From Thermoanaerobaculia bacterium (lineage in GTDB: Bacteria > Acidobacteriota > Thermoanaerobaculia > Multivoradales > Multivoraceae), in assembly GCA_963664405.1 (NCBI GenBank), contig OY761158.1, forward strand, positions 4,576,001 through 4,640,000: a DNA stretch of 64,000 nt, written 5' to 3'. Shown piece after piece: positions 9,255-50,474 of this stretch. The notes under the pieces are model-generated. The model saw nothing but the letters and a program-made list of their open reading frames with translations, did not search any database and had not been told where the DNA came from. Within the stretch, counting starts at the first letter, position 1. Each line of letters starts with the position of its first letter. The position numbers were made by a program, and so were the translations under genes.

Positions 9255-9265
9255 TCTCCGTCCCT

Positions 9266-9403
9266 GGGCTTCGGCGGAAGCCCCGATTCTTGTTGGGAAA
9301 CGAGGTGCCTGGTAAAGCTCTAGTGAACACTAAAGAGCTTCGCGATGGAGCAGGTGACAGTGGGCACTGTCACCATGGTTCTCTCTGTTCGGCGGGTTGG
9401 CAT
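9266..9403 (-). promoter_or_regulatory. Structured cimA 5' leader with three hairpins and a short Thr/Val-rich uORF
   Basis: Inverted repeats at 9266-9283, 9314-9340 and 9353-9374; uORF 9403..9320 MPTRRTERTMVTVPTVTCSIAKLFSVH. Confidence 0.45.
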
Positions 9404-9458
9404 CAGAAGTTCGGCAGCGAGAATACCACGGGGGTAATCTTGGCAGCCCGCCCGTGTA

Positions 9459-12350
<2,892 letters not shown>

Positions 12351-12477
12351 CGGATTGGGCGTGGAGCCCTAGCTACCCCCCTGAGACGCCTCAGACAGTG
12401 ATCTGAGGCAAACCGCGAGTGTAGCAGGGAGATGGAATCGGTAGTAGCCCTTTTCGGATCAGAGTTTGGAGTCCGAT

Positions 12478-12506
12478 TTGACTTATGGGCCCTTGTTCCA
12501 TACAGT
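12478..12506 (+). promoter_or_regulatory. Sigma70 promoter of the ilv-leu operon
   Basis: TTGACT (12478-83), 17-bp spacer, TACAGT (12501-06). Confidence 0.75.
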
Positions 12507-12518
12507 TTCGCGCCAGTT

Positions 12519-12632
12519 ATGACAAGTCGCGTGAGCTCGAACGCCTACCGTGCCCGTCGGGGCATTGGCGAAGGTGTGCTTGGAGAGTTGCTCGTACTCG
12601 TACTTATTGCCCACAGCCCGGGGGCGAAGTAA
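12519..12632 (+). CDS. Branched-chain amino acid attenuator leader peptide
   Basis: MTSRVSSNAYRARRGIGEGVLGELLVLVLIAHSPGAK, with seven consecutive Leu/Val/Ile codons just before the antiterminator. Confidence 0.85.
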   Translation: MTSRVSSNAYRARRGIGEGVLGELLVLVLIAHSPGAK

Positions 12633-12662
12633 GCGTAGCAACAGAGAAGACGCGAAACTTGG

Positions 12663-12692
12663 CCCCCAGCAGAGCGCTGGGGGTTTTGTTTT
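12663..12692 (+). terminator. Intrinsic attenuator terminator
   Basis: CCCCCAGC-agagc-GCTGGGGG-TTTTGTTTT. GGGGGCGAAGT (12620-30) can alternatively pair with ACTTGGCCCCC (12657-67) as an antiterminator. Confidence 0.9.
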
Positions 12693-12734
12693 ATGGGGCT
12701 ATTGAGTCGATCGGGCCCAGGAGATATCAAGGCG

Positions 12735-13688
12735 ATGCCAATCGAGACCTCGGAGTGGATTTGGTACAACAGTAGGTGGGTGAAGTGGGAGGAGGCCACC
12801 GTCCATGTCACCGCCCATGCTCTTCACTATGGCTCGAGCGTCTTCGAGGGGGTTCGAGCGTACGAGGGAGACGAGGGCCCGCGCATCTTCCGCCTCGATC
12901 GCCATCTCGAGCGCTTTCTCGACTCCAGCAAGTTGTTGAGGTTCGACATGGGTGAGCACACGATGGAGAGGCTCACTCAGCTTTGTATCGATTTGGTAGC
13001 TCGCAATCGTCACAAGTCCTGCTACATCCGCCCAATCGCCTTCCGCGGAGAGGAGAGCATGGGCCTCTACCCTCTCGACTGTCCGGTCGAGGTCGTCCTC
13101 TTCAGTTTTCCGTGGGGTCCCTATCTCGGAGACGAGGCGATCGAGGATGGAGTCGACGTACAGGTCAGCTCCTGGCGTCGTTTCGCTCCCGGTACCGGCG
13201 CGCCACTTGGGAAGATCGGCGGTCAGTATGTGACCAACCAGTTCGTCTCCATAGAGGCGCGGCAAAACGGCTATGCCGAGGGCATCATGCTGGACAGTTT
13301 CGGATTTGTCAGCGAAGGTGCCGGTGAGAACGTGTTCGTCGTCAAGCGAGGTGAGATCACGACGCCGCCGATCAGTGCCTCGATCTTGTCTGGAGTGACT
13401 CGAGACAGTGTCATCATCCTGGCGCGGGATCTAGGAATCCCAGTCCACTTCGAGAATGTGACTCGAGAGATGCTCTATCTCAGCGACGAGCTCTTCATGA
13501 CCGGCACCGCGGCCGAGGTGAGTCCGGTGCGCTCCGTCGACCAGATTCCGATTGGCGAGGGTACGCGAGGGCCGATCACGAAGCGCTTGCAGGAGGAATT
13601 CTTCAACATCGTCGAGGGAACGATACCCGACCGGCACGGTTGGTTGACCTGCGTGCCACAAATCCAGTCTGTTGCGGTTCAGGACTGA
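12735..13688 (+). CDS. ilvE: Branched-chain amino acid aminotransferase
   Basis: ALHYGSSVFEG, YIRP, KIGGQY, EGAGEN, ILSGVTR, GTAAEV; start chosen at the ATG after AGGAGA. Confidence 0.95.
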   Translation: MPIETSEWIWYNSRWVKWEEATVHVTAHALHYGSSVFEGVRAYEGDEGPRIFRLDRHLERFLDSSKLLRFDMGEHTMERLTQLCIDLVARNRHKSCYIRPIAFRGEESMGLYPLDCPVEVVLFSFPWGPYLGDEAIEDGVDVQVSSWRRFAPGTGAPLGKIGGQYVTNQFVSIEARQNGYAEGIMLDSFGFVSEGAGENVFVVKRGEITTPPISASILSGVTRDSVIILARDLGIPVHFENVTREMLYLSDELFMTGTAAEVSPVRSVDQIPIGEGTRGPITKRLQEEFFNIVEGTIPDRHGWLTCVPQIQSVAVQD

Positions 13689-13719
13689 AGCCACCGGGCT
13701 CTTTGACTAGGAGAATCAG

Positions 13720-15426
13720 ATGAAGCTCACAGGCGCAGAGATCGTTTGGGAGTCACTCCTTCAGGAAGGCTCCGACCTCGTCTTCGGCTATCCGGGAGGG
13801 GCCATCCTCCCGACCTACGATGCTCTCAGCAAGTATCCGCAGATCCATCATGTGCTTACCCGCCACGAGCAGGGAGCCACCCATATGGCCGACGGGTTCG
13901 CGCGTGCGACAGGCAAAGTCGGCGTGGTGATCGCCACCAGCGGCCCGGGGGCGACCAATTTGGTCACCGGCATCGCGACCGCGATGATGGATTCCTCACC
14001 CATCGTGTGCATCACCGGACAGGTGCCGACGGGAGCAATCGGCACTGACGCGTTCCAGGAGACGGATGTGACGGGAATCACCCTGCCGATCACCAAGCAC
14101 AACTATCTGGTCACTGATGTTCGGGATCTGGCGGGAACCATTCGCGAAGCCTTTCATATCGCTCGCACGGGTCGTCCGGGGCCTGTCCTCGTCGACATTC
14201 CCAAGGATGTTCAGATCGCCGAGACTGTTTTCGAGTATCCGAGCGAGCCCATTCGCTTAGCCGGCTACCGGCTTCTCGACGCGCCACCCCCGGAGCAGGT
14301 CGAGGCCGCGATCGGGCTCATCCAGGCCGCTCGGCGGCCGCTGATCCTGGCCGGCCACGGCGTGCTCATGTCGGGTGCTGTTCGAGAGCTCAGAGAGTTT
14401 GCAGAGAAGACCCAGATACCCATTGCCCTGACGCTGTTGGGCAAGGGTGCAATCGCAGAGGGTCACCCGCTTTGCCTCGGAATGATGGGTATGCACGGAG
14501 AGGCCTGCGTGAACAATGCCATTCAAGATGCCGACTTGCTGTTGGCTTTCGGCATGCGCTTCGACGATCGGGTCACCGGCAACCTCGCCACCTACGCGAA
14601 GATCTCGAAGAAGATCCACGTCGACATCGACCCCTCGGAGATCAACAAGAACGTGCCGGTCGATGTAGGCATAGTGGGCGATTTGCGGGCGGTGCTGGCG
14701 CAGCTCATACCGCTGGCGGATCGAGAGGCAGAGGGCGAGTGGATGGACAAGATAAAGGGATGGCAGGGTGAGACCGAAGATCGAGACATCGCCGGCGAGG
14801 AGGGCTCGGACAAGCTTTACGCGGCGCATGTGATCCGAGACCTCTGGCGCTTCACGGACGGTGACGCCGTTACCGTCACCGATGTGGGTCAGCATCAGAT
14901 GTGGGAGGCCCAGTACTACCCCCATGAGCGACCGAACACACTGATCACGAGTGGCGGGCTGGGTACGATGGGTTTCGGGCTTCCTGCGGCGATCGGCGCC
15001 AAGATGGCCAAACCGAGTGAAGAGGTATGGGCGATAGTCGGTGATGGCGGCTTCCAGATGACCATGGCTGAGCTGGCGACGGCGGTTCAAGAGAAGGTCA
15101 ATGTGAAGGTGGCGATCATCAACAACGGCTATCTCGGGATGGTGCGTCAGTGGCAGGAGTTCTTCTACGAAGAGCGCTACAACGCCACTCCGATGATGAA
15201 CCCCGATTTCTGCAAGCTTGCTGAGGCTTATGGAATCCCGGCGATGAAGGTGACGAAGAGATCGGAAATGGAGTCGAGCGTGGCATGGGCCCGCGAGTAC
15301 CAGGACGGGCCGATTCTTGTCGAGTTCGTCGTCGAGAAGCATGACGTGGTCTACCCGATGGTGCCCACGGGTGCGACTCTCAACGAGATGATCCGTCGCC
15401 CCTCTGTCACGCCAGAGATGGTTTGA
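13720..15426 (+). CDS. ilvB: Acetolactate synthase large subunit
   Basis: GYPGGA, RHEQGA, TSGPGATN, RFDDRVTG, GDGGFQM...NNGYLGMVRQWQ. Confidence 0.97.
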   Translation: MKLTGAEIVWESLLQEGSDLVFGYPGGAILPTYDALSKYPQIHHVLTRHEQGATHMADGFARATGKVGVVIATSGPGATNLVTGIATAMMDSSPIVCITGQVPTGAIGTDAFQETDVTGITLPITKHNYLVTDVRDLAGTIREAFHIARTGRPGPVLVDIPKDVQIAETVFEYPSEPIRLAGYRLLDAPPPEQVEAAIGLIQAARRPLILAGHGVLMSGAVRELREFAEKTQIPIALTLLGKGAIAEGHPLCLGMMGMHGEACVNNAIQDADLLLAFGMRFDDRVTGNLATYAKISKKIHVDIDPSEINKNVPVDVGIVGDLRAVLAQLIPLADREAEGEWMDKIKGWQGETEDRDIAGEEGSDKLYAAHVIRDLWRFTDGDAVTVTDVGQHQMWEAQYYPHERPNTLITSGGLGTMGFGLPAAIGAKMAKPSEEVWAIVGDGGFQMTMAELATAVQEKVNVKVAIINNGYLGMVRQWQEFFYEERYNATPMMNPDFCKLAEAYGIPAMKVTKRSEMESSVAWAREYQDGPILVEFVVEKHDVVYPMVPTGATLNEMIRRPSVTPEMV

Positions 15427-20816: not shown

Positions 20817-21944
20817 ATGGGCGAAACGAATCAGCGAGCCAGGATTGTCCGTTTGCCGGGAGACGGCGTGGGCCCCGAGGTTCTCGGCGAAGGATGCCGG
20901 GTCCTGTCACTGGTGGCGGAGAGACGCGGCCTAATGCTGGATTTCGACGAGGCTCCGATCGGTGGCTGTGCTATCGACGCTTCGGGTAGTGCATTGCCGG
21001 ACGAGAGCGTCGCCATTTGTGAGAAGGCTGATGCGCTCTTCTTAGGAGCTGTCGGAGGGCCGAAGTGGTCGGATCCGACAGCGCCGGTTCGTCCTGAGCA
21101 GGGCCTTCTGGAGCTGCGTCGGCATTTCGGTCTTTTCGCCAACCTGCGACCCGTGCCGGTTTATGAGGGATTGCTCGACCTGACGCCGATCAAGGCCGAG
21201 CTCGCTCGAGGTGTCGACATCTTATTTGTTCGCGAGTTGACCGGCGGCATCTATTTCGGTCCACGGCTCGAACAGGGTGAAGGCACGACGGCGTCGGACA
21301 CCCTGGTTTATAGCTCGGACGAGGTGGAGCGGGTCGCTCGGGTCGCGTTTGAGGCCGCGAAGGATCGCCGCGGCAAAGTGACCTCGGTGGACAAGGCCAA
21401 TGTCCTGGCCTCGATGCGACTGTGGCGGCGGACCGTCGAGGTCGTCGCCAGAGACTATCCGGAGGTGGAGCTGGAGCACGTTCTGGTGGATGCCTGCGCC
21501 ATGCATCTGATCAGGACGCCGGCGACCTTCGACGTGATTCTGGCGGGGAACCTGTTTGGCGACATTCTCAGCGACGAAGCCTCGGTCCTTTCCGGCTCGC
21601 TTGGGATGTTGCCGTCAGCTTCTCTCGGCGACGGCCCAATGGGTCTCTACGAGCCGGTTCACGGGTCCGCTCCCGACATCGCAGGGCAAGGCATTGCCAA
21701 CCCTGTCGGCGCGATCCTGTCGGCGGCGATGTTGCTGCGCTTCAGTCTCGGTCGCGAGCAAGAGGCCTTGGCAGTCGAGGCCGCCGTAGCACGCACTTTG
21801 GACGACGGCATACGCACCTCGGATCTTGGATTGTCGGGCGCTAGCGGAGCCTCGACCCGAGAGATGGGTGACGCGATCTTGCAGCGCCTCGACGCCATCC
21901 TCACCGACCACTCATCGAGAGGTTGTCCCGGCGTCAGAGGATGA
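20817..21944 (+). CDS. leuB: 3-isopropylmalate dehydrogenase
   Basis: [49 protein letters not shown]. Confidence 0.97.
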
Positions 21945-23985
21945 CCGCTTCGGCTCCCAGATCTGCTATGAGATCGTCGAAGCGTTGCAGGATGGCGTCC
22001 CAGCGATCGAAGAGGCTCTTGAGCTCAGCGGGTCTCAGATAGGGCTCGAGTCGCTCCTCGACAGCGCCGCGATCCGCTGTCCGCAGCTTCTCCCAGAGCT
22101 CGCGCTCGCAGCGACTGAGCTTGGCGATCGCTTCCTCGCTGTGCTCGCTGAAGAAGGATCGACCGTGGTCGATGAGCCAGACCTTCCACTCGGAGTCGAT
22201 GAGATAGTTGCCTGGGTTGCGATCGTGATTGTTGATCAGGGCGTCGAAGACATCAACTTCTCCCATCTGGCGCGACCAGTCCCTGATATCGGGTGGCCGA
22301 AGCCCTTCTGAGCGCCTCCGCCCTTCGGTCATTGCATTCTCCAGCCAAGCCTGGATCGACCCCTTGGCGCCTTTGTAGGATCTTGGCGCGGTTGGCGGAA
22401 CGCGGTCGAGGCTGAGGATACGATCGAGCTCGTAGGCCGCGGTATCGAAGGCGTAGCTATCGCGGAAGTGCCGGTAGAACTTGCCGTCCCCGATCTTCTT
22501 GTTGCGGTGCTCCAGGTCTACATCACGGAAGATGGCGCGGGCTCGGATGCCGTCGCGCTCCAGCTCTACACGAATCGGCTGATTGATCCCTTCCTTGCTC
22601 CGCTTTCCGGACTTGACAGCGGCGGTACTGAGAAACTCCAGCAGCTGCTCGGCACTGCCAAAGGGTAGGGGCGCGCCATCGGCACCGGCCCATGACCAGG
22701 GCTGCGTCGTGGTCGCGACAGCAGCAGCGGGTGCCCCGCTCGCCGACAGGCTCAGGCGTTGACGGGGCGGCTCTTCGCTCTCCTTCCACAGCGGCACTCT
22801 GTTGTTCTTGTAGATCGCGGTGAAGGCACCATCCTGGATCTCGAGAGCGGAGGCCTGCCCACGATAGGTCGAGGTCAGCATGCCGGTGTCGATCAGGAAG
22901 ATTCGGCCGTCGAAACGCACACCGATTTCGCGATCGGTCTGCACATTGTGGCCCACGACGATGTGCTTCGTTCCTTGGGCCGCCAGGACCGCGTCAGTTA
23001 GCGCCGGTCCCTCCTCGTCACTCCAACCCGCCTCTCCTCCGGGCTCGGGAACGGAGTCTCGGTAGCCGCGGAACCAGAGCGGTCCCTCCGGAGCAAACAG
23101 ATACCACTCTTCGTAGTTGCTGCATTGGCTGAGCGTTTCGAGCTGTGAGACTTCGATCTCGCTGAGCCCCTTGTTCTGCTGTTTGACCTGGAGGCCGTTC
23201 AGCGTCGCGAAGCCCGACTGGATGAGGTCGGCAGTTGTCGATGTCAGGGTGAGATAACCCTCTCCGCGTAGCAGTGCGCGGCAGGCGTCTAGGTTCGCCA
23301 CTTCTTCGTGCACCTGCCGGTTGATGTCTTCGATCGGGCGAGCGCCGACCTCAGGGGTGAGACCGGCGTGGAGAAAGAGGGCGTTATCGACGCGAACGAT
23401 TGCGGGCAGGCCTCTGAGCCAGCTCCCGTACTTCCCTTCGGGCAGGAGTTGCTGGAGGTAGGCGATGGTTCCTTCAGGGTTCGCCTTCGACCACAGCTCG
23501 CGCTCGCTGGTGCCGAAGGCCGGACGCGGCAACGACAGCAATTTGGCTCGGTTGCGTGCGGCGCGGACCATGCTCTTGTACTCTTCGTCGCGCTTCGCCG
23601 TCGTGCTCTCGTCTGCGAAGTGACCGAGCGCTTCGGCGCTGACGTCTCTGAGCTCACCGACCAGATTCAGGGCTTCGTGGTTCCCCATCAGAACCTCGAC
23701 CCGACCTCCGGCGGCCGCCGCCTCTCGCTGGAGTCGCATCAGCAGGTCCATGACCTCGCGCACGCCCGGCCCCCGATCGGTGAAGTCGCCGGTTTGGACG
23801 AGGGTGCTATCGCCCCCCGACCACGTGAGCTTCTCGTCGATGAGGCCGCTGGCGATGAGAATCTCCACCAGCTCGTCGTAGGCGCCATGAATATCGCCAA
23901 TGGCGACGGTGCGGGCCCCAAGAACCGCGGCCGGCAACGAAAAGAGGAGGAGTACAAGTGCGGCGACGCGAGCGCCTGAGATCAT
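21934..23985 (-). CDS. Exported fusion of a calcineurin-like metallophosphoesterase and a PI3/4-kinase-like (atypical kinase) domain
   Basis: Signal peptide; phosphatase motifs GDIHG, GDFTDRG, GNHE, HAG, GH, IDTGM; C-terminal AAYELDRIL...[34 protein letters not shown]. Confidence 0.85.
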
Positions 23986-25025
23986 GGCGCCACCTGCTGG
24001 AGCATCGTTCCTTCGCGAGCGATCTGTGCCGCGGCCTCGACCCAGTGGTCATCGCTGTTCAGAGAAGGAACCAGGCGGAGCTCTTGGCCCCCATGATCGA
24101 TGAAGTCCTGCCTGGCGCGGATGGCGATCTCTTCGAGGGTCTCGAGACAGTCGGCAACGAAGGCCGGAGAGAGAACGGCCAGCCGCTTCACGCCTTTCCT
24201 GGCGAGAGCCGGAACCCTGAGATCTGTGTAGGGCTTGATCCAAGGGTCGCGGCCGAGCCGAGATTGGAATGTCACCTCGTATTGACTCTCGTCGAGGCCG
24301 ACGAGCCTGGCGATGCCGCGGGCGGTCGCAAAGCACTGGGCCCGGTAGCAATTCCGGTTGGCGGCGACGATCGTGTCGCAACACCCATCGCCGAGACAGT
24401 GAGCGCCGTCGGACTCGTCGCTCTTGGTGACATGCCGCTCCGGCAGACCGTGGAAGCTCATGAGCGTAAAGTCTGGGGCGAAATGCTCGTGCACCCGCTT
24501 GGTCTGCTCCGCGAAGGATGCAAGGAATGCGGGATGATCGTAGAAGGGCGGCACGACTTGAATCGACGGTATGTTCCAGAATACCGACGCTTCTTCCATC
24601 ACCTTTTCAACGGCCGATCCCCAAGCCGCCGAGGAGTACTGGGGGAAGAGGGGGAAGACCACAAGCTTGTCGAGCGCCAGCTCGCGTAGGCGAATGAGAG
24701 CTTGGCGGATCGATGGGTTCTTGTAACGCATGGCGAGCTCGATTGCGACCTCGGGGCCGAGCTTCTTCTGGAGCTTTTTGGCCAGATCCTGCCCATGGAA
24801 AAGGAGAGGTGATCCGCGGTCGGTCCAGATCTGGCCGTATGCTTCGGCGGACTTGCGAGGCCGAAACGGAAGAATGAACAGATTGAGCACCAGCGCTCGC
24901 TGGATCGGGTGCACATCGAGCACGCGAGGGTCGGAGAGGAACTCTCGGAGGTAGCTGCGCACCTCGGCGGTACTGGGGCTGTCGGGAGTCCCGAGGTTGA
25001 CAAGGAGTAGGCCGTAGCGTGGCAC
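23982..25025 (-). CDS. hemH: Ferrochelatase
   Basis: LLVNLGTP, YLREFLSD, SFHGLP, FQSRLG, FVADCLETLEEI. Confidence 0.95.
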   Translation of the reverse strand: MPRYGLLLVNLGTPDSPSTAEVRSYLREFLSDPRVLDVHPIQRALVLNLFILPFRPRKSAEAYGQIWTDRGSPLLFHGQDLAKKLQKKLGPEVAIELAMRYKNPSIRQALIRLRELALDKLVVFPLFPQYSSAAWGSAVEKVMEEASVFWNIPSIQVVPPFYDHPAFLASFAEQTKRVHEHFAPDFTLMSFHGLPERHVTKSDESDGAHCLGDGCCDTIVAANRNCYRAQCFATARGIARLVGLDESQYEVTFQSRLGRDPWIKPYTDLRVPALARKGVKRLAVLSPAFVADCLETLEEIAIRARQDFIDHGGQELRLVPSLNSDDHWVEAAAQIAREGTMLQQVAP

Positions 25026-25086
25026 GGGGCGATCAAGTCTAGCAGTCAGTTGCCGGCCGCGCTTCGAGAAAAACTTGCTTCAAGCG

Positions 25087-27969
25087 TCACGCATGTGAGG
25101 TATTAGAGATACTTAGAACCCACCGAGCGGTTTCTTCGAGAAGAGGATCCGCGGGTCCTCGGGCGACCGATTCGACGAGCGGAGTGAGTCCTCTGATTTC
25201 CTCCTCGTGGACGAAGCTCAGTGCGGCCGCTCCCAGCCAGAGGCCGACGGCGTCGGAGTCTCTGGCTCCCTGGATGAGGTTGCGGACGATGTCCTGCTTC
25301 TCGCCGTGACTGATGTGGAATAACCGCTGAGCCTCGGCCAGACGCTCGTCGGAGGGTATGTCGTCGACCACGGCCAGCGTGTGCCGGCGGATGGACGGAG
25401 GGAGACTGTTATCGAGATACTCGAGAGCATGACCTCTCATCCTGGTGTCGGAGCTCTTGAGCTGTTCGAAAGCGGTGAGCCTTTCGTGTCGACTCTCCAC
25501 CATCGAGAGTAGAGCGAAGAGATTCGCCGAGTGGTCGGAGAGACGATCCATCAGCAGTTCCTGAAGCAGGGTTGGTGGCCGCTGGGAGCGCCAGCGGAGG
25601 CGGATTCCCCGAACGGAAAGCTCCCCGGGTCTCGAGATCGGGATCAGACGGGAGAAGGCACGGAGATAGAGTCTGGTCTCTTCTATGGCGTGCCTCTCGA
25701 CCACATGGCGATCGAAGCGGAGGCTCGGATCCTGGTCATGCAGTGAGGCCAGCGATGCGATGATCTTTCCGTTGAGGAAGGCGTCGTCGGTCGGGAGGCT
25801 GTCGATCAGGGCGTTCTTTGCGGCCTCTCCGCCGATGCGCGCGATGGTCTTGGGGAGGGCGCGCCGGATCCAGTAGAACTCTCTGGGGTCGGTCATGAAG
25901 TGGGCGAGTGCAGGGATCACCGCTTCGCCGCTGGCGACGAGGGCGTTGCGCACCTCGTGCTTCAGGCGCCGCTTCCTGAGCAGAGAGGTCAGAACCGGAA
26001 CGAATAGGTAGTTCACGCCGTCGCGCTCAATCTGTTGCAGCGCGCTGGCGATGGCTGCGCGAAGCACCTCGAGATCGGAGTCCGACAGCAGATGAAGAAG
26101 GCCAGCATGGGAGTCGGCGCCGCCGATAGAGCCCAGAGCTTGCGCCGCCGCCTCCCGGGTCTTGGGGTCGGCATCTCTGAGCATCCCGGCGAGCGCTCCC
26201 TGCGCTCGCTCGCCGATCTCTGGCTCGTTCTCGATCTGGAGGAGGCAGACGATGGCGGCGGCTCGCACCCGCTTGTCGGGGTCGCGCAGGCGGGGAACCA
26301 TCAGCGCAGAGATGTCTGTATCGGTGAGCGTTGCAAGCGTGCGCACCGCATCCACGCGCACGTCCGGATCGTTGTCGGCGACCAGGCGCTCGACCAGTGA
26401 CCGGGCGTCTCGACGTCCCAGATCGCTCAACAGGGCCAGGGTGCGGCGCCGGACCAGGGGGTCGTCGTGAAGAAGGAGCAGCGGCGGGACCAGGCGTCCG
26501 CGTCCCTGCGACGTCAACAGGTCGAGGCTGTGGAGCACTTCCCCCGAGTCCGCGCTTCCCAGTGAGCTGACAAGGACTTCCAGCGTGGTCACGTCAGAGG
26601 GATCGAGGCGCTCGTCGGGATCGATCCTTCTGGCCAACAGGCCCTCGCGAAAGATGGCGACGTAGTTCTTCCGCACGATGATGGTCAAAGCGAGCCAGGC
26701 AGCGACCAGAACCAGCACGGCCCAGCCCGTCTGGACCGGCGACACCCAGCCGAAGGTCACGCTCAACAGGAGCACCCCTGCTCCCGCCTTGGCGAATCGT
26801 TGCACCAGCACGTCGATGTAGGCCTTGATTCTGGGGCGGATGTTCAGGGGGACAGGAACGTAGAGAAGCTCTCTCGTGCCCTGGTCCAAGGAGTAGCGGA
26901 GCGCGCCCTCGCTGACTTTGAGCCCCGCCACCGCGGCGACGAGGAGGGAGGGCAACACAGCCGCGGAAAACAGCACGAGCATGGTGCCCAGGCCCATACA
27001 GACCGGCAGCACGCGGAGCGCGAAGCCCACGCCAAGCACCCGATGGACTCTCGAAGTCACCACCAGCTGCAACACCAGGGCGACCAAAGCGCTCAAACTG
27101 AAGAGGTTCCCGAACAGGCGGGTTCTTTGGTCCAGGAGGTCGGTGGACTGCTGGACGACCCAATTGAACTGCAGGTCGATGAACTGCGCCACGATGATGC
27201 TCACGAACATCAGCCCGGCAACCGCGAGGAGGTGTGGGGATTGGCGGATGGTGGCGAAGTCGCCGCGAGTGGCCTCCACCTTCGGCTCGGGTCGAGGCAT
27301 GGTGGTGGTTGCGTACGCGACCGTCTTGTTACCGTCGTGGATGCGGCGCACGAACGCCAGTGTTCCGAGTAACAGCAGGGTGGAGGCCAGGAGGGTGGCC
27401 CGGGTCTCCAGGAAGACGGAGCTCCAGCGGGCAACCTGACCGCCGATGACGCCGCCGAGGAGTCCCCCGGAGAGTACGAGGCCGAAGAGGCGGCGGGCTT
27501 GTCGTGGGTGGAGTAGTTGGCCGGCCCAGCTCCAGAACTGGCTGAAGAGAAGCAGGGTGACGATCGAGATCCAGATGTAGAAGACGAAGCTGACCCAGGG
27601 CCACGGGTAGGCGTAGAGAGACCAGAAGACCAACAGGGTCGCGACGACGACCAGGGTTGTCCACGAGATCAGCCGCTCGAGCGGGGCTCGTGCCGCTGCG
27701 CGGCTGTACCCTCGAAGAACCGGATAGGCGAAGAGAGCGACTACCACATAGACGATCGGTAGGCGCTCAAAGCCGAGGCTGTCCACGAAGGAGGATTGAC
27801 GGACGCTCTTGGCGGCGAATTGGAAGGCGCCGAGAAGAACGCAGTAGCCGAAGAGGGAGCCTACGAGGCCGGCTTCCTCCTGCCGAACGTCGAAGCCGAT
27901 TCGCGCGAGAGCCCGCCAAGGCCATCCAGTGGCTCTATGGGCCCCAGCCGGTTTTAGACTTCGGTCCAC
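25087..27969 (-). CDS. Npt1/Npt2 (TLC ATP/ADP translocase-like) MFS transporter fused to HEAT repeats
   Basis: About 12 TM N-terminal half with KSVRQSSF, QFWS...RQARRLFG, IDLQF, LRYSLDQGTRELLYVPVP, KAYIDV; C-terminal DPxVR HEAT-like repeats. Confidence 0.88.
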   Translation of the reverse strand: MDRSLKPAGAHRATGWPWRALARIGFDVRQEEAGLVGSLFGYCVLLGAFQFAAKSVRQSSFVDSLGFERLPIVYVVVALFAYPVLRGYSRAAARAPLERLISWTTLVVVATLLVFWSLYAYPWPWVSFVFYIWISIVTLLLFSQFWSWAGQLLHPRQARRLFGLVLSGGLLGGVIGGQVARWSSVFLETRATLLASTLLLLGTLAFVRRIHDGNKTVAYATTTMPRPEPKVEATRGDFATIRQSPHLLAVAGLMFVSIIVAQFIDLQFNWVVQQSTDLLDQRTRLFGNLFSLSALVALVLQLVVTSRVHRVLGVGFALRVLPVCMGLGTMLVLFSAAVLPSLLVAAVAGLKVSEGALRYSLDQGTRELLYVPVPLNIRPRIKAYIDVLVQRFAKAGAGVLLLSVTFGWVSPVQTGWAVLVLVAAWLALTIIVRKNYVAIFREGLLARRIDPDERLDPSDVTTLEVLVSSLGSADSGEVLHSLDLLTSQGRGRLVPPLLLLHDDPLVRRRTLALLSDLGRRDARSLVERLVADNDPDVRVDAVRTLATLTDTDISALMVPRLRDPDKRVRAAAIVCLLQIENEPEIGERAQGALAGMLRDADPKTREAAAQALGSIGGADSHAGLLHLLSDSDLEVLRAAIASALQQIERDGVNYLFVPVLTSLLRKRRLKHEVRNALVASGEAVIPALAHFMTDPREFYWIRRALPKTIARIGGEAAKNALIDSLPTDDAFLNGKIIASLASLHDQDPSLRFDRHVVERHAIEETRLYLRAFSRLIPISRPGELSVRGIRLRWRSQRPPTLLQELLMDRLSDHSANLFALLSMVESRHERLTAFEQLKSSDTRMRGHALEYLDNSLPPSIRRHTLAVVDDIPSDERLAEAQRLFHISHGEKQDIVRNLIQGARDSDAVGLWLGAAALSFVHEEEIRGLTPLVESVARGPADPLLEETARWVLSISNTSHA

Positions 27970-27976
27970 TAGCCGA

Positions 27977-28801
27977 CTAGTCTGCAGGTAGCATCAACAC
28001 CGCCGGATCGATCCGTGCTCCACGCCAACGAAGACCGAAGTGTAGATGAGGGCCCGTCACCCTTCCGGTGCTACCGACCCTGCCGATAGCTTTGCCGCCT
28101 TCGACTTTTTCGCCGGCCTCGACATCGATCCGGCTGAGATGCATATACATACTGATCAGTCCGTCTCCGTGGTCGATGAAGACGCTGTTGCCGCCGAAGA
28201 AGTGCTCCTCCGCAAGCACTACCTCGCCGGCCGCGGCGGCCAGTACCGTAGTGCCTGTCGAGGCCTTGTAGTCTTCGCCGCTGTGAGGGCTGCGCGGCTG
28301 GCCGTTGAAGACCCTTTTGGAGCCGAAGCTGGTGCCGGGTCGCGGATCTTTGATCGGGTGTGCAAGCGGAATCTCGAACTGTCTACCGGTGTCGCGATCC
28401 CACAGGGCATCGATCTGAGCTCTCTCCTCACCGGCGCGAGTGAGATTGGCCTCTGACAAGTTGACCTGGCCGTCGTCGCTCACCCGCAGATGCTGCACGC
28501 GATAGGGATAATCACCCAGCTTTACCGTGGCCGACTCTTGCGCTCCATTGCGACGGCGATGGATGGCAAGCTCGCCGCTGCGGTCGAGGTCGATCGGGAA
28601 GTAACAAGTGTCTCCGTGAGGGAGCCAGGAGCGGTCGTCCGCCGAGCAGCTTTCGGTGTCGGCTGCGACCCAACGAACGACGGTGCCGGCAACAGCGGAG
28701 ATGGGCTCGTCCTCGGCCACGAGGCCGGGTGCGAGAAGCGCGATTCCGAGAGCCGAGAGTACGAGGCTCGCCGCGAGTGGGCATCTGTTGCGGGTTGTCA
28801 T
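27977..28801 (-). CDS. Exported M23-family metallopeptidase
   Basis: Signal peptide; HSGED, IDHGDG, YMHL, GSTGRVTGPHLHF. Confidence 0.93.
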   Translation of the reverse strand: MTTRNRCPLAASLVLSALGIALLAPGLVAEDEPISAVAGTVVRWVAADTESCSADDRSWLPHGDTCYFPIDLDRSGELAIHRRRNGAQESATVKLGDYPYRVQHLRVSDDGQVNLSEANLTRAGEERAQIDALWDRDTGRQFEIPLAHPIKDPRPGTSFGSKRVFNGQPRSPHSGEDYKASTGTTVLAAAAGEVVLAEEHFFGGNSVFIDHGDGLISMYMHLSRIDVEAGEKVEGGKAIGRVGSTGRVTGPHLHFGLRWRGARIDPAVLMLPAD

Positions 28802-28840
28802 GGTGGGGTCGGCTTGCTCTGCCGGATCGTAGCACCGGCC

Positions 28841-29128
28841 CTAAGGATCCAGCATGACAGTCGCTCTTCCCTGCTCGGCGATAAGCGCGCGGAAGTGGAC
28901 GAGGATTCGCTACCGGTCGGTGAGATCGCCGGTCTGCACCAAGGTCGTGTCGTCGCCGGACCAGGTGAGCTTGTCGTCGACCAGACCGGTGGTGCGAAGG
29001 ATCTCCACCAGCTCGCCGTAGGCACCGTGGATGTCACCGATGGCGACGGTACGCCCCGCGGACGCCGTGGCCGGCAGCGACGAGAGAATGAGTGCCGCCG
29101 CTGCGATCCGACCCAACGCCGAGCTCAT
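28841..29128 (-). pseudogene. Internally deleted paralog of the phosphatase-kinase fusion
   Basis: Signal peptide plus [12 protein letters not shown]...TLVQTGDLTDR, then TAG, then in-frame RILVHFRALIAEQGRATVMLDP, which matches the intact copy's C-terminus [20 protein letters not shown]. Confidence 0.85.
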
Positions 29129-29547
29129 CAGGAATCCCGGTCGACTTCGGGCTCTGAGAGAAATTCGCGAAATAGTGCCTTGACGATCTCGATGTTGTGA
29201 GAGAGCAGGTCGAAGAAGTCGTCGGCCTCGACAGCCAGGGTCACGGTAGAGCACTGGGCGGTAGCTCTGGAGGAGTGCAGGCGTCCGCTGAGGATCTCCC
29301 TCGCTCCGAATGTCTGGCGAGAGAGGGCACGCCGTGCCCCATCACTCGTGCCCACGAGCTCCACCTCACCCTCGACGACGCAGTAGAAGGCGTCCGCCGG
29401 CTCGTTGATGCCATAGACCTCCTCCCCTTCTTCGAAGTGTCGCTCACTGGAGATGCCGGCGATGCGCACAACCTCCTCGGCGCTGCAGTGGCTGAAGATG
29501 TCGACATTGCGCAGCATCATCACCTTTTCGATCTGGGCGAGCTTCAC
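29128..29547 (-). CDS. Stand-alone cyclic nucleotide-binding domain protein
   Basis: IEKVMMLRNVDIFS, FYCVVEGEV, TFGAREIL; no HTH. Confidence 0.85.
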   Translation of the reverse strand: MKLAQIEKVMMLRNVDIFSHCSAEEVVRIAGISSERHFEEGEEVYGINEPADAFYCVVEGEVELVGTSDGARRALSRQTFGAREILSGRLHSSRATAQCSTVTLAVEADDFFDLLSHNIEIVKALFREFLSEPEVDRDS

Positions 29548-29578
29548 GAGGCCGCCCAGTCTACCAGCCGGCCGAGTC

Positions 29579-30334
29579 TCAGATTCCTAACAAGCGGCGC
29601 TGGTTGTCTTCTATCGCCTCGAACACTTCTTCCTCCGAGGTCTCCTTGAGACGGGCGATCTCGGACAGGCTTATGCGCACATTCGCCGGCTCGTTACGCT
29701 CGCCCGGAGTCGGACCCAGTACCGGACTGTCGGTCTCGACCAGGAGGCAGGATAGCGGCAGACGCCGCACCAACTTCTGCTTCTGGGGAGAGCGCACCAC
29801 CGACGGCGGCACCGAGAAGTAGAAGCCGGCTTCGACTCCAGGGAGTGCCTTGGCGGCGCGGCCGTCGAAGGCATGAAGGAGAGCTTTCCTCGCTCCGGCT
29901 TCGAGTAAGAGGGCGATGGCGGCGCCGCCGGCAGAGCGTGAGTGAATGTTGAGGGGCAGGTCGGTCTCCGTCGATAGGCGGATGAAGCGAAGGAAGATCT
30001 CGCTTTGTAGCTCCCTTTGGGCAGGCTCTTTGACCTTCCAGTGGTCGAGACCGACCTCACCGATCGCCACCAGACGATCACGCTCGCGTCGAATGAGCTC
30101 TAGCATCTGCTCGGCCTCGCCCAGGTCCAGGATCGTCGGGTAGAGGCCGGCGGTAGGGCGGATGATGTCGGGGTGCGCCTCGGCCAGGTCGAGGTTCTTC
30201 TGTGCATCGTCGAGCGTTTCGCCGACACAGACGACTGCCCCTACCCCGGAGGCGCGGGCGCGCTCGAGAACCGCGGAGCGATCCTCGTCGAAGACCGGGT
30301 CGCAGAGATGGGCATGTACGTCGACGAGGGGCAT
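29579..30334 (-). CDS. TatD-family DNase/hydrolase
   Basis: DVHAH, IGEVGLD, IHSR, LLHAF, VETDSP; start moved to MPLVD. Confidence 0.92.
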   Translation of the reverse strand: MPLVDVHAHLCDPVFDEDRSAVLERARASGVGAVVCVGETLDDAQKNLDLAEAHPDIIRPTAGLYPTILDLGEAEQMLELIRRERDRLVAIGEVGLDHWKVKEPAQRELQSEIFLRFIRLSTETDLPLNIHSRSAGGAAIALLLEAGARKALLHAFDGRAAKALPGVEAGFYFSVPPSVVRSPQKQKLVRRLPLSCLLVETDSPVLGPTPGERNEPANVRISLSEIARLKETSEEEVFEAIEDNQRRLLGI

Positions 30335-30350
30335 CGGCTCGGGTCGATGG

Positions 30351-31259
30351 CTAGGCGTCTCGGGACCGGGCTCTGTCCTCGAGCTCTTCGAGAGTGCGGG
30401 GCCAGTCCTTCTTGAGAAGACGGGAGAGGGCGCGATCGGCCAGAAGGCGCCCACGGTTCTGGCAGCGAGCGCAGTAATTGCACTCGTTCTCGGCATAGAC
30501 GATGCGCTGAACCGGCGAGCCGCAGTCAGGGCAGGGCTCGCGAAAGCGCCCGTGAACGGCCATTCCCGCGCGAAAGGCGGTTACCTTTTTGGGAAAGGTA
30601 ACGCCGGTCTCCTGCTCCAGTCGACTCTTCCACTCTTCCAGAACATCACGGGTGGCGACGTAGAGGCGCTCCAATTCTTCCTCGGAGAGCCGGGAGCTCA
30701 GCTTCATCGGTGAGAGTCTGGCGCGGTGCAGAATCTCGTCGGAATAAGCGTTGCCGATCCCCGACAGGATCCGGGGGTCGGTGAGGGCTCGCTTGAGAGT
30801 GTGGTTCTCTCGCGTCAATGCGGCGCCGAAGTGCGCCGCGTCTGTCGCCAATACCTCGAGCCCTCCACGGTCGAAGGCAGCGAGAGATTCTCTGCCGCGG
30901 ACGACGTGAAGGGATGCCCTCTTCTTGGAGCCCGCCTCTCGTAGGAGGAGGGTGCCCGGGGCAAAGTCGAAAGCGGCGAGCCCGACTTTCATCGGCAGTC
31001 GCGCACCGCTCGCGAGCCAGAGGAATCGCCCAGCGATCATCAGATGGATCACCAGAAAGAGGTCGCCTTCGAGCTCGACGATGATGCGCTTGCCGAGGCG
31101 ACTGACACCGGTGACGGTCAACCCCTCGGCGTCGGAGAGCGGTGGGTCTACTGAGCGCAGGACGAACGGGCTACCGAGCCGCGTCCGCTCCAGGATCTCG
31201 CCGACGATACGAGCTCGGAGCGCTCCGAGGTAGACCTCGATATCCGGCAGCTCGGGCAC
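30351..31259 (-). CDS. Fpg/Nei-family DNA glycosylase
   Basis: MPELPDIE, HLMIAG, SGIGNAYSDEIL, C-terminal CPDC...CARCQ zinc finger. Confidence 0.92.
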   Translation of the reverse strand: MPELPDIEVYLGALRARIVGEILERTRLGSPFVLRSVDPPLSDAEGLTVTGVSRLGKRIIVELEGDLFLVIHLMIAGRFLWLASGARLPMKVGLAAFDFAPGTLLLREAGSKKRASLHVVRGRESLAAFDRGGLEVLATDAAHFGAALTRENHTLKRALTDPRILSGIGNAYSDEILHRARLSPMKLSSRLSEEELERLYVATRDVLEEWKSRLEQETGVTFPKKVTAFRAGMAVHGRFREPCPDCGSPVQRIVYAENECNYCARCQNRGRLLADRALSRLLKKDWPRTLEELEDRARSRDA

Positions 31260-32060: not shown

Positions 32061-34163
32061 ATGAAGAGTCGGTGGTCCGAGCGCGACGCGCAAGAATTCC
32101 GCGACCGCTACCGGGAGTGGGGAGAAGACGTCGCACTCCGGGTCTACAGCTCACGCCTTATTGGCGGCGATCCCGCCCTGGTGATGCATGGCGGCGGCAA
32201 CACTTCGGTGAAGAGCACGTGGCGAAACCTCTTCGGCGAGCCGGTCGAGGCCATCTTCGTAAAGGGAAGCGGATGGGATCTCGACTCGATCGAGCCGGCG
32301 GGCCTACCGGGTCTCGAGCTCGCCTATCTGCGGCGCCTCCAGGCGGTGGAGCACCTGTCCGATGAGGAGATGGTGAATCAGCTTCGCACGCACCTCTTCG
32401 ACGCGGCGGCGCCGAACCCTTCGGTCGAGACCCTTCTCCACGCTTTTCTGCCCCACAAGTTCGTCGACCACTCTCACGCCGATGTCATCCTCGCCCTGAC
32501 CAACCAGGCTGAAGGCGCAGATCTGATCGCCGAAGCGCTGGGCCCCAAGGTGGCGCTGGTGCCCTACGTGATGCCGGGTTTTGCCCTGTCTGGAGCGGCC
32601 GCGCGAGTCGCCGAGGCTCATCCGGGCTGTGAAGGAATGGTGCTGATGCATCACGGTCTCTTCACTTGGGGAGAAACGGCCAGGGAGAGCTACGAGCGTC
32701 ACCTCGATCAGGTGACCCGCGCCGAGGACTTCCTCCACGCTCGCACCGGGCGGCGACTGTCGGTAGGCCGGCCGGCAAGCGCTGTGGAGGATCGAGCCGA
32801 GGTCGCGGCGGAAGTCGCTCCGCTGGTTCGTGGGGCTCTGACCCGGGCCGACGATCGTGACCGGCGTTGGATTCTCGATTTCCGAGTGACCGGCGGCATC
32901 GAAGAGTTGGTCGATGGGGAAGACACCTCGACCGTGCTCGCCACCGGTCCGCTCACCCCCGACCATGTCATTCGCACCAAAGAGCTACCCCTGGTCCTCC
33001 CTCCATACGACGGCACCGCTGCCGAGGCGTGGGCGGCGGAGCTCGAGGAGCGTCTTCGCCTCTACATGTCTGCCTACGACCGCTATTTCCGGGAAGCGTC
33101 GGAAGCGAGAGAGAGAACCGACCTCGAGCGTCTCGACCCGTTGCCTCGGATCGTGGTGATCGAGCGGCTGGGAGTGTTGGCAGTTGGCGAATCGAAGCGA
33201 GCGGCGGCGGTGGCCGGCGATATCTATGAGCATACAGCCGAAGTGAAGGCGGTCGCACGATCTCTGGCGCCTTATCGAGCTCTCGACCCGCTGGATCTCT
33301 TCGATGTCGAATACTGGAGTCTGGAGCAGGCGAAGCTCGGAAAGAAGGCGGCACCGGCGCTGCAGGGCCGAGTGGCCCTGGTTACCGGCGCCGGTGGAGT
33401 GATCGGTGCGGCAATCAGCGTTGCGCTGGCTCGTGAGGGTGCCGCGGTCGTCGCCACCGATATCGACAGCGACGCTCTTGTTGCAACCGTGGATCGCGCT
33501 CGAGCGGAAAACACTGCCGGCGAGGTGACGAGCCTAGTGTGTGACGTCTGTGACGAAGTTTCGGTCGCGGCTGCCTTCCGGCAGACCCGCCTCAGTCTTG
33601 GTGGCGTTGACATCGTTGTGCTCAACGCCGGTATCGCAAAGAGCGCTCCGATCGATGAGCTGAGTCTGGACGACTGGAATCGGGTTCTCGAGATCAATCT
33701 GACCGGTTATTTCATCACTCTTCGCGAGGCGGCGCGCCTGTTCAAAGTCCAAGGGACAGGTGGAAACGTAGTGGTGAACGCATCGAAGAACGTTTTTGCA
33801 CCGGGCGCCGATTTTGCGGCGTATTCTGTCTCCAAGGGGGGAGGTCACCAACTCGGCCGCTTGGCCGCGATTGAGCTGGCGCCCCATGGTGTTCGGGTAA
33901 ACATGATCAATCCCGATGCAGTGTTCAGCTATGGCGATCTCACTTCGGGGCTGTGGGAAGAGGTCGGTCGGGAGCGCGCCCGCTCTCGAGGCTTGGATCT
34001 CGAGCAGCTGGAGGACTACTACCGAGATCGCAACTTGCTCAAGACGCGCATAACCGCCGAGGATGTCGCCAGGGCCGTGCTCTTCTTCGCCAGGGAGGAA
34101 ACGCCAACTACCGGCGCTACTCTACCGGTGGACGGAGGATTGCCAGGCGCCTTCCCGAGATAG
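32061..34163 (+). CDS. Bifunctional class II aldolase / short-chain dehydrogenase (rhamnulose-1-phosphate aldolase-like)
   Basis: HGGGNTSVK, PSVETLLH, HSHAD, TPDHVIRTK, EYWSLEQAKL; SDR TGAGGVIG and YSVSK. Confidence 0.92.
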   Translation: MKSRWSERDAQEFRDRYREWGEDVALRVYSSRLIGGDPALVMHGGGNTSVKSTWRNLFGEPVEAIFVKGSGWDLDSIEPAGLPGLELAYLRRLQAVEHLSDEEMVNQLRTHLFDAAAPNPSVETLLHAFLPHKFVDHSHADVILALTNQAEGADLIAEALGPKVALVPYVMPGFALSGAAARVAEAHPGCEGMVLMHHGLFTWGETARESYERHLDQVTRAEDFLHARTGRRLSVGRPASAVEDRAEVAAEVAPLVRGALTRADDRDRRWILDFRVTGGIEELVDGEDTSTVLATGPLTPDHVIRTKELPLVLPPYDGTAAEAWAAELEERLRLYMSAYDRYFREASEARERTDLERLDPLPRIVVIERLGVLAVGESKRAAAVAGDIYEHTAEVKAVARSLAPYRALDPLDLFDVEYWSLEQAKLGKKAAPALQGRVALVTGAGGVIGAAISVALAREGAAVVATDIDSDALVATVDRARAENTAGEVTSLVCDVCDEVSVAAAFRQTRLSLGGVDIVVLNAGIAKSAPIDELSLDDWNRVLEINLTGYFITLREAARLFKVQGTGGNVVVNASKNVFAPGADFAAYSVSKGGGHQLGRLAAIELAPHGVRVNMINPDAVFSYGDLTSGLWEEVGRERARSRGLDLEQLEDYYRDRNLLKTRITAEDVARAVLFFAREETPTTGATLPVDGGLPGAFPR

Positions 34164-49925: not shown

Positions 49926-50240
49926 CTAGCCGATCGCCAGAGTGCCGAGAGCGTTGCGCTGAACGCCTGCTTCATCGAAGTTCCCCGGATCGAGCCACTT
50001 CTTCATGGCGGCTTTGAGCGCCGGCCACTCCGCGTCGGTGATCGAGTACCAGGCGGTGTCCCGGTTGCGACCCTTGTACACACTGGCCTGACGGAAGATC
50101 CCTTCGAAGCGGAAACCGAGCCGTTCAGCGGCTCGACGGGAGCGGGCGTTCAACGCATCGCACTTCCACTCGTAGCGCCGATAGCCGAGCTCGTCGAAGA
50201 CTCGCCTCATCATCAGGTACATGGCCTCTGTCGCTCCGGG
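49926..50240 (-). pseudogene. GNAT (RimJ/RimL-like) acetyltransferase, C-terminal fragment
   Basis: ATEAMYL, GYRRYEWKC, RLGFRFEGIFRQ, RNRDTAWYS; N-terminal half absent. Confidence 0.85.
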
Positions 50241-50273
50241 GAGTCCGTAGCGGGCTATGCGTTCGTATCATTC

Positions 50274-50465
50274 ATGGAAATGAAGGGTTTCCCGCATCTT
50301 TTCATGGGAGCGATCGCGGTTGCGGTTGCAGGAGTGGCGATAGCGGGTGACCCGCCGGTTTTTAGCCATGAAGACTGGACGGCCGTCCTCGAGCGCTTCG
50401 TCGACGACAAGGGATTCGTGGACTATCGTGCCCTGTTGAGTGACCGCGTTACTTTTGACCGTTAG
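50274..50465 (+). pseudogene. DUF547-like exported protein, N-terminal fragment
   Basis: Signal peptide then FSHEDWTAVLERFVDDKGFVDYRAL and a premature stop. Confidence 0.7.
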
Positions 50466-50474
50466 CATGCACTA

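Follow-up and report, generated by a model that had tools for sequence, protein, structure and literature searches.

A nucleotide-translocase-like carrier linked to predicted exported phosphatase-kinases in Acidobacteriota

Nucleotide translocases (NTTs) of plastids and bacteria exchange ATP for ADP plus phosphate, and the mitochondrial ADP/ATP carrier, a functional analogue, exports ATP from an energized compartment. To our knowledge, the bacterial periplasm is taught as being free of ATP. We analyzed a 64,000-nucleotide stretch of a Thermoanaerobaculia genome (contig OY761158.1, positions 4,576,001 to 4,640,000; hereafter the window), in which positions 21934-29547 encode an NTT/TLC-type carrier with a HEAT-repeat domain (P0002), a cyclic nucleoside monophosphate (cNMP)-binding protein, and a phosphatase-kinase (P0001, here PK) with a signal-peptide-like N-terminus. 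Judged by its genes and those of its relatives, the window is best explained as a rearranged copy of a conserved four-part module of Acidobacteriota, consisting of the predicted inner-membrane carrier-HEAT protein, the cNMP protein (in some lineages fused to the carrier), a predicted Sec-exported phosphatase, and one or more predicted Sec-exported Fam20-like kinases. We see about an even chance that the carrier would exchange cytoplasmic ATP for periplasmic ADP and so feed the exported kinases.

The closest described proteins to the carrier are the NTT-HEAT(-cNBD) proteins of Major, Embley and Williams (2017; PMC5381601), which have the same N-terminal TLC/NTT domain, the same C-terminal HEAT repeats, and a cNMP domain that is adjacent or fused. 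Based on its sequence, P0002 is placed in this NTT-HEAT clade. The available text of that paper lists Acidobacteria among the taxa with NTT-HEAT proteins, reports such proteins in cyanobacteria and chlamydiae as well, describes the NTT-HEAT-cNMP fusion with no function assigned to it, and discusses ATP uptake. It mentions no exported kinase or phosphatase as a neighbor, whereas the carrier described here is tied to Sec-exported enzymes, which suggests an outward supply.

Canonical NTT antiporters, such as AtNTT1 and the chlamydial and rickettsial Npt1/Tlc proteins, have a carrier domain homologous to that of P0002, in which charge is kept at 11 aligned positions but not at the acidic residue of the "AELWG" stretch, and by analogy their exchange mechanism would allow flux either way. 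P0002 is unlike them in its weak similarity, its additional HEAT and cNMP modules, its free-living-sized genome, and the outward direction that we propose. For TlcA of "Candidatus Azoamicus ciliaticola," nucleotide exchange between an energy-generating endosymbiont and its host has been speculated (Graf et al. 2021, PMC7969357). Unlike P0002, TlcA is a canonical single-domain NTT of an endosymbiont, its recipient compartment is the host cytosol, and there are no periplasmic enzymes. ATP in this symbiosis reportedly flows outward, to the host. A 2020 review, as far as its available text goes, describes the route of ATP into the periplasm as unknown and states that no homologue of an ATP-ADP translocase is known from Gram-negative genomes (PMC7432876).

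The kinase domain of PK is to be compared with the Fam20 secretory kinases (the Golgi casein kinase Fam20C, the xylosylkinase Fam20B, and the pseudokinase FAM20A), to which it shows profile homology over both lobes and the C-terminal helices. Common to the two are the xDR catalytic loop, the D-x-x-R-x-F metal segment, and paired acidic residues, and both lie behind a signal sequence and act outside the cytosol, the PK kinase by prediction. Eukaryotic Fam20-type enzymes depend on ATP carried into the lumen of the endoplasmic reticulum and Golgi apparatus. Unlike Fam20, the PK kinases are bacterial, measure about 250 residues, mostly have Arg at the position of the ATP-binding lysine, and are often fused to a phosphatase; their kinase activity is predicted. 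The phosphatase domain resembles the Shewanella enzymes of structures 1v73 and 2z72, which we take to belong to the subgroup named Shelph, in its GDxHG, GDxxDRG, and GNHE motifs and downstream histidines. In contrast to those enzymes, it is fused to or lies beside a kinase and is linked to a carrier.

A literature search, with most subscription journals and supplements outside its coverage, returned no account of an association between an NTT carrier and exported kinases and no description of a periplasmic kinase supplied by an ATP exporter. Nor did it return a description of bacterial Fam20 relatives, of which the available texts of PMC7948968 and PMC5865150 make no relevant mention.

Linkage of carrier and kinase in Acidobacteriota

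The association of carrier and kinase extends far beyond chance. A preliminary description of this DNA had set conserved linkage of carrier and PK beforehand as the test of its proposal, and the comparative data bear the linkage out. Of 41 related genomes, the 19 that have the carrier are exactly those that have PK, and in 15 of these 19 the two genes lie within 3 kb of each other on one contig. The two-gene genomes include 14 of the 24 in one family (f1) and all of those in two others (2/2 in f5 and 2/2 in f7), and a ten-species genus lacks both genes.

To place this pattern in the phylum, a sample of 151 genomes, each at least 90% complete, was searched with P0002 as a single-protein query. 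Both genes were found in 34 genomes, the carrier only in 8, the kinase only in 4, and neither in 105; in 14 of the 34, carrier and kinase lie within about 3 kb. With an NTT-HEAT profile, the corresponding counts are 38, 27, 0, and 86, as the four "kinase only" genomes of the single-protein search have NTT-type carriers by profile. An NTT-type carrier is thus present in 38/38 kinase-bearing genomes, compared with 27/113 of those without the kinase. The tallies include the unpublished genome G087, which has the carrier and lacks the kinase; when it is left out, the profile counts are 38, 26, 0, and 86 of 150. The kinase-bearing genomes belong to 20 families, every one of which is among the 32 (of about 62) that have the carrier (hypergeometric p = 2.5e-8, with families treated as independent, which holds only approximately).

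The neighborhoods of the kinase genes give the same picture. We examined the best 77 of 599 confirmed kinase loci, in stretches reaching up to 8 kb on each side; nearly all are labeled Acidobacteriota, including Thermoanaerobaculia, Holophagae, and Terriglobales. A carrier gene is present in 41 of the 77 loci, and in 22 of the 33 for which the full 8-kb flanks are covered. The gap between carrier and kinase is 355 bp or less in 27 of the 41, and a Shelph phosphatase is found in 49/77. Four gene orders recur: carrier, cNMP protein, and PK in succession; a phosphatase or phosphatase-kinase followed by the carrier, with a convergent stand-alone kinase; PK followed by the carrier; and divergent pairs. 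A fifth order, at locus L105, has a carrier-HEAT-cNMP fusion followed by kinase and phosphatase. The linked carriers are 28-57% identical to that of the window, with values of about 28-31% in the order that includes the convergent kinase.

Some individual loci are recorded here for their gene content. At L106 (G084:C23:35000-53000), positions 8365-13881 hold one phosphatase gene and then five tandem kinase genes of about 273 codons each, divergent from a carrier gene that is flanked by genes for a STAS protein and an FHA-GAF-SpoIIE phosphatase. At L098 (G043:C9:43000-59500), from a carrier-only genome, the carrier gene is followed by a cNMP gene and then (positions 9643-13067) by a gene for a 990-residue protein with PPDK_N (ATP-binding) and PEP-utilizer domains, a possible different partner of the carrier. 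L057, labeled Polyangiaceae, was considered as a case of cross-phylum transfer and rejected, since its "phylum" sample is the same Acidobacteriota sample.

Sequence features of the kinase, phosphatase, carrier, and cNMP protein

To establish the kinship of the kinase domain, a profile of the window domain and 71 relatives (72 members) was run against PDB sequences. The best matches are FAM20A (E 1.1e-16), Fam20C (E 3.3e-13 and 2.4e-12), the Fam20B xylosylkinase (E 7.1e-11), and Caenorhabditis elegans Fam20, ceFam20 (E 2.7e-8), with type II PI4K far weaker (E 4.8e-3). The domain had been described as PI3/4-kinase-like; at the level of fold and motif this resemblance stands, whereas the family identity, as far as profiles can tell, is Fam20-like instead. 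The alignment to Fam20 takes in the beta-3 strand "A-x-F-K," the helix "E-x-A-A-[FY]-x-L-x-R-x-L...V-P-P," the catalytic loop "F-D-x-L-I-x-N-x-D-R," the metal segment "D-x-x-R-x-F," and the C-terminal helices. Taken alone, the window domain matches TIGR03843 (E 1.5e-12), PI3_PI4_kinase (PF00454; 18.2 bits versus 27.1), and Fam20C (PF06702; 14.4 bits versus 26.8), in each case below the cut-off. Across the 72 members, PF06702 matches at E <=1 in 45, the best at 4.3e-8, and one relative, P0242, passes at 29.4 bits. By the Pfam cut-off, then, the PK kinase appears as a sister family of Fam20 and not as a member.

The catalytic residues are strongly conserved. D509, D588, and D606 are invariant in 72/72 family members and in 118/118 full-length homologues of PK, and N586, R589, N593, and R609 are nearly so in the kinase family. 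D588, D606, and D509 align with the Fam20 catalytic Asp, the metal-binding Asp, and the acidic partner of the ATP-binding Lys, respectively. At the position aligned with D509, active Fam20 kinases have Asp or Glu and FAM20A, a pseudokinase, has Gln; the position is needed for Fam20 activity according to the available text of PMC5865150. This conservation argues for a family of active metal-nucleotide enzymes. The family is large, with 2709 representative clusters at E <=1e-3 and 392 at E <=1e-30, and most of its members are stand-alone proteins of about 280-330 residues. The genome of the window encodes a second, divergent stand-alone kinase (L002; G000:C1:6683258-6684064) with 31% identity, in which an internal Met is followed by a signal-peptide-like stretch and the catalytic loop reads D-A-N instead of D-R-N. 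It adjoins genes for methylmalonyl-CoA mutase and pantothenate kinase.

The phosphatase half of PK has the motifs GDIHG, GDFTDRG, and GNHE, which make up the PPP signature. Its best solved relatives, over residues 17-115, are the cold-active protein-tyrosine phosphatases of Shewanella (2z72 and 1v73; E 2.6e-24), with enzymes of the ApaH type far behind. Residues D31, H33, D67, D70, R71, N102, H103, E104, H206, and H346 are invariant in all 118 full-length homologues. Elsewhere in the genome, a Shelph-type paralogue without a signal peptide (L003; G000:C1:27125-27751) is flanked by genes for a Hanks-type Ser/Thr kinase and a tetratricopeptide-repeat protein, and is apparently, to go by its N-terminus and neighbors, a cytoplasmic counterpart.

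To call signal peptides, we inspected the sequences by eye and applied a simple, crude rule of hydropathy and motif. The N-termini of the full PK and of a shorter copy in the window both have a basic n-region, then a hydrophobic stretch and, immediately ahead of the first phosphatase motif, a site of small residues, in agreement with the signal peptides that the preliminary description had assigned to both copies. Its expectation of a noncytoplasmic enzyme likewise agrees with the relatives, as by the same rule 97/120 fused homologues and 80/84 stand-alone kinases have signal-peptide-like N-termini. Most of the fused homologues scored as negative simply lack the exact motif that the regular expression needs. 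At L028, where phosphatase and kinase are encoded by separate genes in the order with the convergent kinase, both proteins have such N-termini.

P0002 is the product of the only TLC-type gene in the genome. Its TLC match covers residues 124-436 (Table 1; 27.2 bits in the genome scan), and an NCBIfam "AAA" superfamily model reaches 26 against a cut-off of 387. In a phmmer search, the first 490 residues match two solved ATP/ADP carriers, plastidic AtNTT1 (9j3j; E 1.7e-8) and 9j3n (E 1e-6). Charge is kept relative to AtNTT1 at 11 positions (R159, R160, D265, R358, R366, E367, R378, R380, K382, D386, and K394), and five of these (R160, D265, R358, K382, and D386) show 90% or more conservation among 24 aligned NTT-HEAT proteins, whose identities go down to 24%. 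A hydropathy scan, a crude method, gives 11 clear membrane segments, and a twelfth was placed by reading within residues 305-329. Both ends of the carrier domain lie inside in this topology and the basic loops face inward. As both ends are inside, the HEAT domain of about 500 residues, with HEAT_2 and HEAT matches from about residue 500, would be cytoplasmic, and the natural carrier-HEAT-cNMP fusions agree with this placement.

The cNMP protein of the window has no signal peptide and is taken to be cytoplasmic. In relatives, its orthologues lie between carrier and PK, directly after the carrier, and many carrier homologues hold a cNMP domain in the same chain, including the one at L105. These fusions support the earlier suggestion that a cNMP module acts on the carrier, and the protein is likely, from its position and fusions, a regulatory subunit of the carrier. 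Genes for two class III nucleotide cyclases are also present in the genome.

Layout and rearrangement of the locus

All six genes of the preliminary description are present, tightly packed and co-oriented on the minus strand, in the order cNMP protein, PK remnant, M23 peptidase, TLC-HEAT protein, hemH, and full PK (Table 1). Every long open reading frame (ORF) with a family match in 21934-29547 is on this strand, and the start of PK overlaps the stop of hemH.

Table 1. Positions of the genes and domains of the carrier-PK locus in the window
Feature	Positions	Strand	Basis
cNMP_binding protein, 139 aa	29128..29547	-	PF00027, 46.7 bits versus cut-off 27.5
PK remnant ORF, 72 codons	28910..29128	-	Sequence reading; amino acid and DNA alignment to full PK
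M23 peptidoglycan metallopeptidase, 274 aa	27977..28801	-	PF01551, 111 bits
P0002, TLC + HEAT protein, 960 aa	25087..27969	-	PF03219, HEAT_2, HEAT
NTT/TLC-type carrier domain of P0002, residues ~1-445	26635..27969	-	PF03219, 28.2 bits versus cut-off 21
HEAT-repeat domain of P0002, residues ~446-960	25087..26634	-	HEAT_2, 83 bits; HEAT, 49.6 bits
Ferrochelatase, hemH	23982..25025	-	PF00762, 310 bits
P0001, phosphatase-kinase (PK), 683 aa, Metallophos + kinase-like	21934..23985	-	Family matches
Signal-peptide-like N-terminus of PK, residues 1-23	23917..23985	-	Sequence and hydropathy/motif rule
Shewanella-like (Shelph) PPP-family phosphatase domain of PK, residues 24 to ~405	22771..23916	-	PF00149
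Fam20-like kinase domain of PK, residues 425-683	21937..22713	-	Family profile

What had been listed as a second, collapsed phosphatase-kinase copy is indeed there, and the alignments indicate that it is a truncated remnant of a paralogous PK gene. Its ATG overlaps the TGA of the cNMP gene, and the frame runs through a signal-peptide-like N-terminus and the first two phosphatase motifs (GDIHG and GDLTDR) to a TAG. It shares 69% amino acid identity with residues 5-72 of PK, and a DNA alignment of the two 5' regions gives about 78% column identity.

The usual order in relatives is carrier, cNMP protein, and PK, often flanked by a divergent acetyl-CoA synthetase (Acs) gene before and a gene for a HerA-like ATPase after (L006, L008, L011, and L016; L026, L036, L057, and L085). 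Only the closest relatives (L012/L019 and L018) have a hemH gene between carrier and PK, and L017 has a similar-sized gap there; at L019 the order is carrier, hemH, cNMP protein, PK. In the window, the cNMP gene lies upstream of M23 together with the first 216 bases of a PK gene, the intact PK comes directly after hemH, and the overlap of cNMP gene and remnant keeps the ancestral junction of cNMP protein and PK that is found in relatives. As relatives keep the order carrier, cNMP protein, and PK, at L019 with hemH after the carrier, the window is read as a rearranged descendant of the usual operon.

The gene order first described is therefore not that of the module, since the conserved order is the one in relatives and neither M23 nor hemH is conserved. 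In the 77 kinase loci, M23, sought by tblastn, occurs in 2, hemH in 1, Acs in 2, and the HerA-like ATPase in 3, and all four were rejected as parts of the module. The strand of M23 varies among relatives, and the adjacent peptidase, which had been taken as a hint of envelope remodeling, finds no comparative support in this role; on these counts M23 and hemH are read as passengers outside the conserved module. In several close relatives a HerA/DUF87-like ATPase gene (about 840 codons) directly follows PK. The corresponding gene here is a 244-codon ORF at G000:C1:5734228-5734854, 1.1 Mb from the window (L096/L097), which joins residues 22-113 to residues 730-845 of a relative's protein, an internal deletion.

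Genes for HAD, Fpg/Nei, and TatD proteins lie upstream of the run on the same strand, and leuB of a leuCDB cluster lies downstream and convergent. As listed, the Fpg/Nei ORF (31259-30351) and the TatD ORF (30496-29579) overlap by 146 bases (30351-30496); the true TatD start is probably further downstream, since the TatD match begins at residue 58. Divergent from this HAD-Fpg-TatD run, a plus-strand ORF at 32061-34163 encodes a 700-residue fusion of a class II aldolase and a short-chain dehydrogenase. AT skew is strongly negative at 44001-46000 (-0.22) and 50001-52000 (-0.32) compared with the rest of the window. A promoter and terminator scan of 21500-30600 found no promoter-like site and three terminator-like sites, against 5.0 expected, none of them intergenic. 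A reading of the locus as a defense system was dropped, as a PADLOC search had no match for either PK or the cNMP protein and matched the carrier as a HEAT-repeat protein only.

Proposed direction of transport and competing readings

From the gene content, domain identities, catalytic-residue conservation, signal-peptide-like N-termini, and linkage and co-occurrence described above, we infer a supplier-client relation, because an exported, apparently competent kinase needs a nucleotide donor and its only constant companion is a homologue of ATP/ADP exchangers. In the mechanism that we propose, the carrier would run outward, moving cytoplasmic ATP out and periplasmic ADP back, possibly with phosphate. 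ATP would flow in this direction because the cytoplasmic ATP/ADP ratio is high and ADP is made outside. The efflux would supply a phosphoryl donor to the exported kinases, whose compartment otherwise has none; the kinase would phosphorylate envelope or secreted targets, whether proteins or glycans, and the exported phosphatase would remove the mark. Exchange of ATP for ADP plus phosphate would exactly balance such a periplasmic pair of kinase and phosphatase. As ATP efflux is costly, the HEAT domain and the cNMP-type protein may gate it from the cytoplasmic side.

Several observations weigh against this mechanism. With regard to the carrier, P0002 matches the TLC model weakly (28 bits) and lacks a counterpart of the acidic residue in the canonical "AELWG" stretch of solved carriers, and no transport data for any NTT-HEAT protein were found in the literature, including the available text of Major et al. 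2017 (PMC5381601). With regard to the enzymes, the call of export rests on the crude signal-peptide rule, and the window kinase domain falls below the curated cut-off of every Pfam kinase family. The position of the ATP-binding lysine is R487 in the window and Arg, His, or Lys in 58, 7, and 5 of the 72 family members, which could mean a different donor, a different chemistry, or weak activity. The canonical phosphate-binding cassette of cNMP domains reads FGE...R[ST]A, whereas that of the cNMP protein here is FG-x-x-E-I-L-S-G-R-L-[RH]-x-x-x-A-x-A, with His in the window at a near-invariant Arg, so that the ligand of this protein is uncertain. Exported ATP would leak via porins, making export costly, and a protein that combines kinase and phosphatase runs the risk of a futile cycle.

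The distribution of the genes also holds points on this side. The sampled genomes are related, so the counts overstate independence, and 36/77 kinase loci have no carrier in the flanks covered. Carriers without the kinase occur in 27/113 genomes, and NTT-type carriers are widespread in other phyla according to the available text of Major et al. 2017 (PMC5381601). In six carrier-only genomes, the annotatable neighbors include cytoplasmic histidine kinases, a response regulator, and a PPDK-like protein. As carriers occur without the kinase and with other neighbors, their role appears broader than feeding it.

Among the alternatives, the one that fares best is import or scavenging, which we consider unlikely. 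Here the carrier would take up periplasmic nucleotides, and the exported enzymes would process extracellular nucleotides or be secreted further, for example by a type II system, onto other cells or lysed prey with ATP. All characterized NTTs import or exchange nucleotides inward, as far as the available text of Major et al. 2017 (PMC5381601) extends, the PK phosphatase is distantly related to the dinucleoside-tetraphosphatases ApaH and PrpE, and 56/72 members of the kinase family give weak HipA-like matches. However, an exported phosphatase would destroy the importer's substrate, and an exported kinase would gain no phosphoryl donor. Import also leaves the presence of the carrier in every kinase-bearing genome unexplained, the conserved neighborhood has no secretion-system genes, and a 6.78-Mb genome with leucine and heme biosynthesis genes in the window gives no sign of dependence on host nucleotides.

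It is rather improbable, in our view, that carrier and enzymes are coupled through another chemistry. The carrier would then move a different anionic metabolite or donor (another nucleotide, a nucleotide sugar, nicotinamide adenine dinucleotide [NAD], S-adenosylmethionine [SAM], or a phosphorylated compound), and the Fam20-like domain would be a glycan or small-molecule kinase, a different nucleotidyl transferase, or a pseudokinase. The basic residues predicted to line the carrier match those of ATP/ADP carriers, and the catalytic Asp, the metal-binding Asp and Asn, and the acidic residue absent from FAM20A are invariant or nearly so, which speaks against such a coupling. The similarity of the carrier to ATP/ADP carriers is nonetheless weak, and most kinases of the family have Arg or His at the lysine position. 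Precedents exist for both partners: NTT members carrying NAD and SAM are known from titles cited in the available text of Major et al. 2017 (PMC5381601), and Fam20B is a sugar kinase and FAM20A a pseudokinase according to that of PMC5865150.

Co-regulation alone, with carrier and enzymes sharing an operon or regulon of cNMP-dependent signaling and no metabolite passing between them, seems to us quite doubtful. In its favor, signaling genes are plentiful around the carrier, with products that include histidine kinases, Ser/Thr kinases, and response regulators as well as a STAS protein and a SpoIIE phosphatase. The pairing is kept, however, in four or more gene orders, some of them divergent or convergent and so unable to form a single operon, and across the full identity range of the linked carriers. 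The dependence, moreover, is one-sided, in that the kinase is never without the carrier and the carrier is often without the kinase, which fits supplier and client better. A chance or inherited neighborhood with no functional tie is already disfavored and very improbable, for although related genomes share gene order by descent and the run holds hemH and M23, which are not conserved, the carrier is found in 41/77 kinase loci against 1 to 3 of 77 for other neighbors, the arrangements are varied, and the family-level association is as improbable as given above.

Returning to the outward exchange of ATP for ADP, the consistent pairing of the carrier with an exported kinase and phosphatase in one phylum suggests that ATP is delivered outside the membrane for the phosphorylation of envelope targets, which is not known to occur in bacteria. 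More tentatively, Acidobacteriota may run reversible periplasmic phosphorylation, with a regulated NTT-HEAT carrier as the long-sought route for ATP across the inner membrane, a radiating family of exported Fam20-like kinases (up to about a dozen per genome) as writers, and exported Shelph phosphatases as erasers. It is possible, if less likely than the exchange itself, that such a system would be a prokaryotic counterpart of the eukaryotic secretory-pathway kinases and their supply of ATP in the lumen, and perhaps the origin from which these evolved. The module offers a named candidate carrier together with named client enzymes, which makes the question of periplasmic ATP directly testable. 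If the proposal is true, ATP-dependent phosphorylation would be a regulatory layer of the bacterial envelope, the widespread and uncharacterized NTT-HEAT proteins would gain a function, and the Fam20 kinases that phosphorylate secreted proteins in animals would have bacterial relatives.

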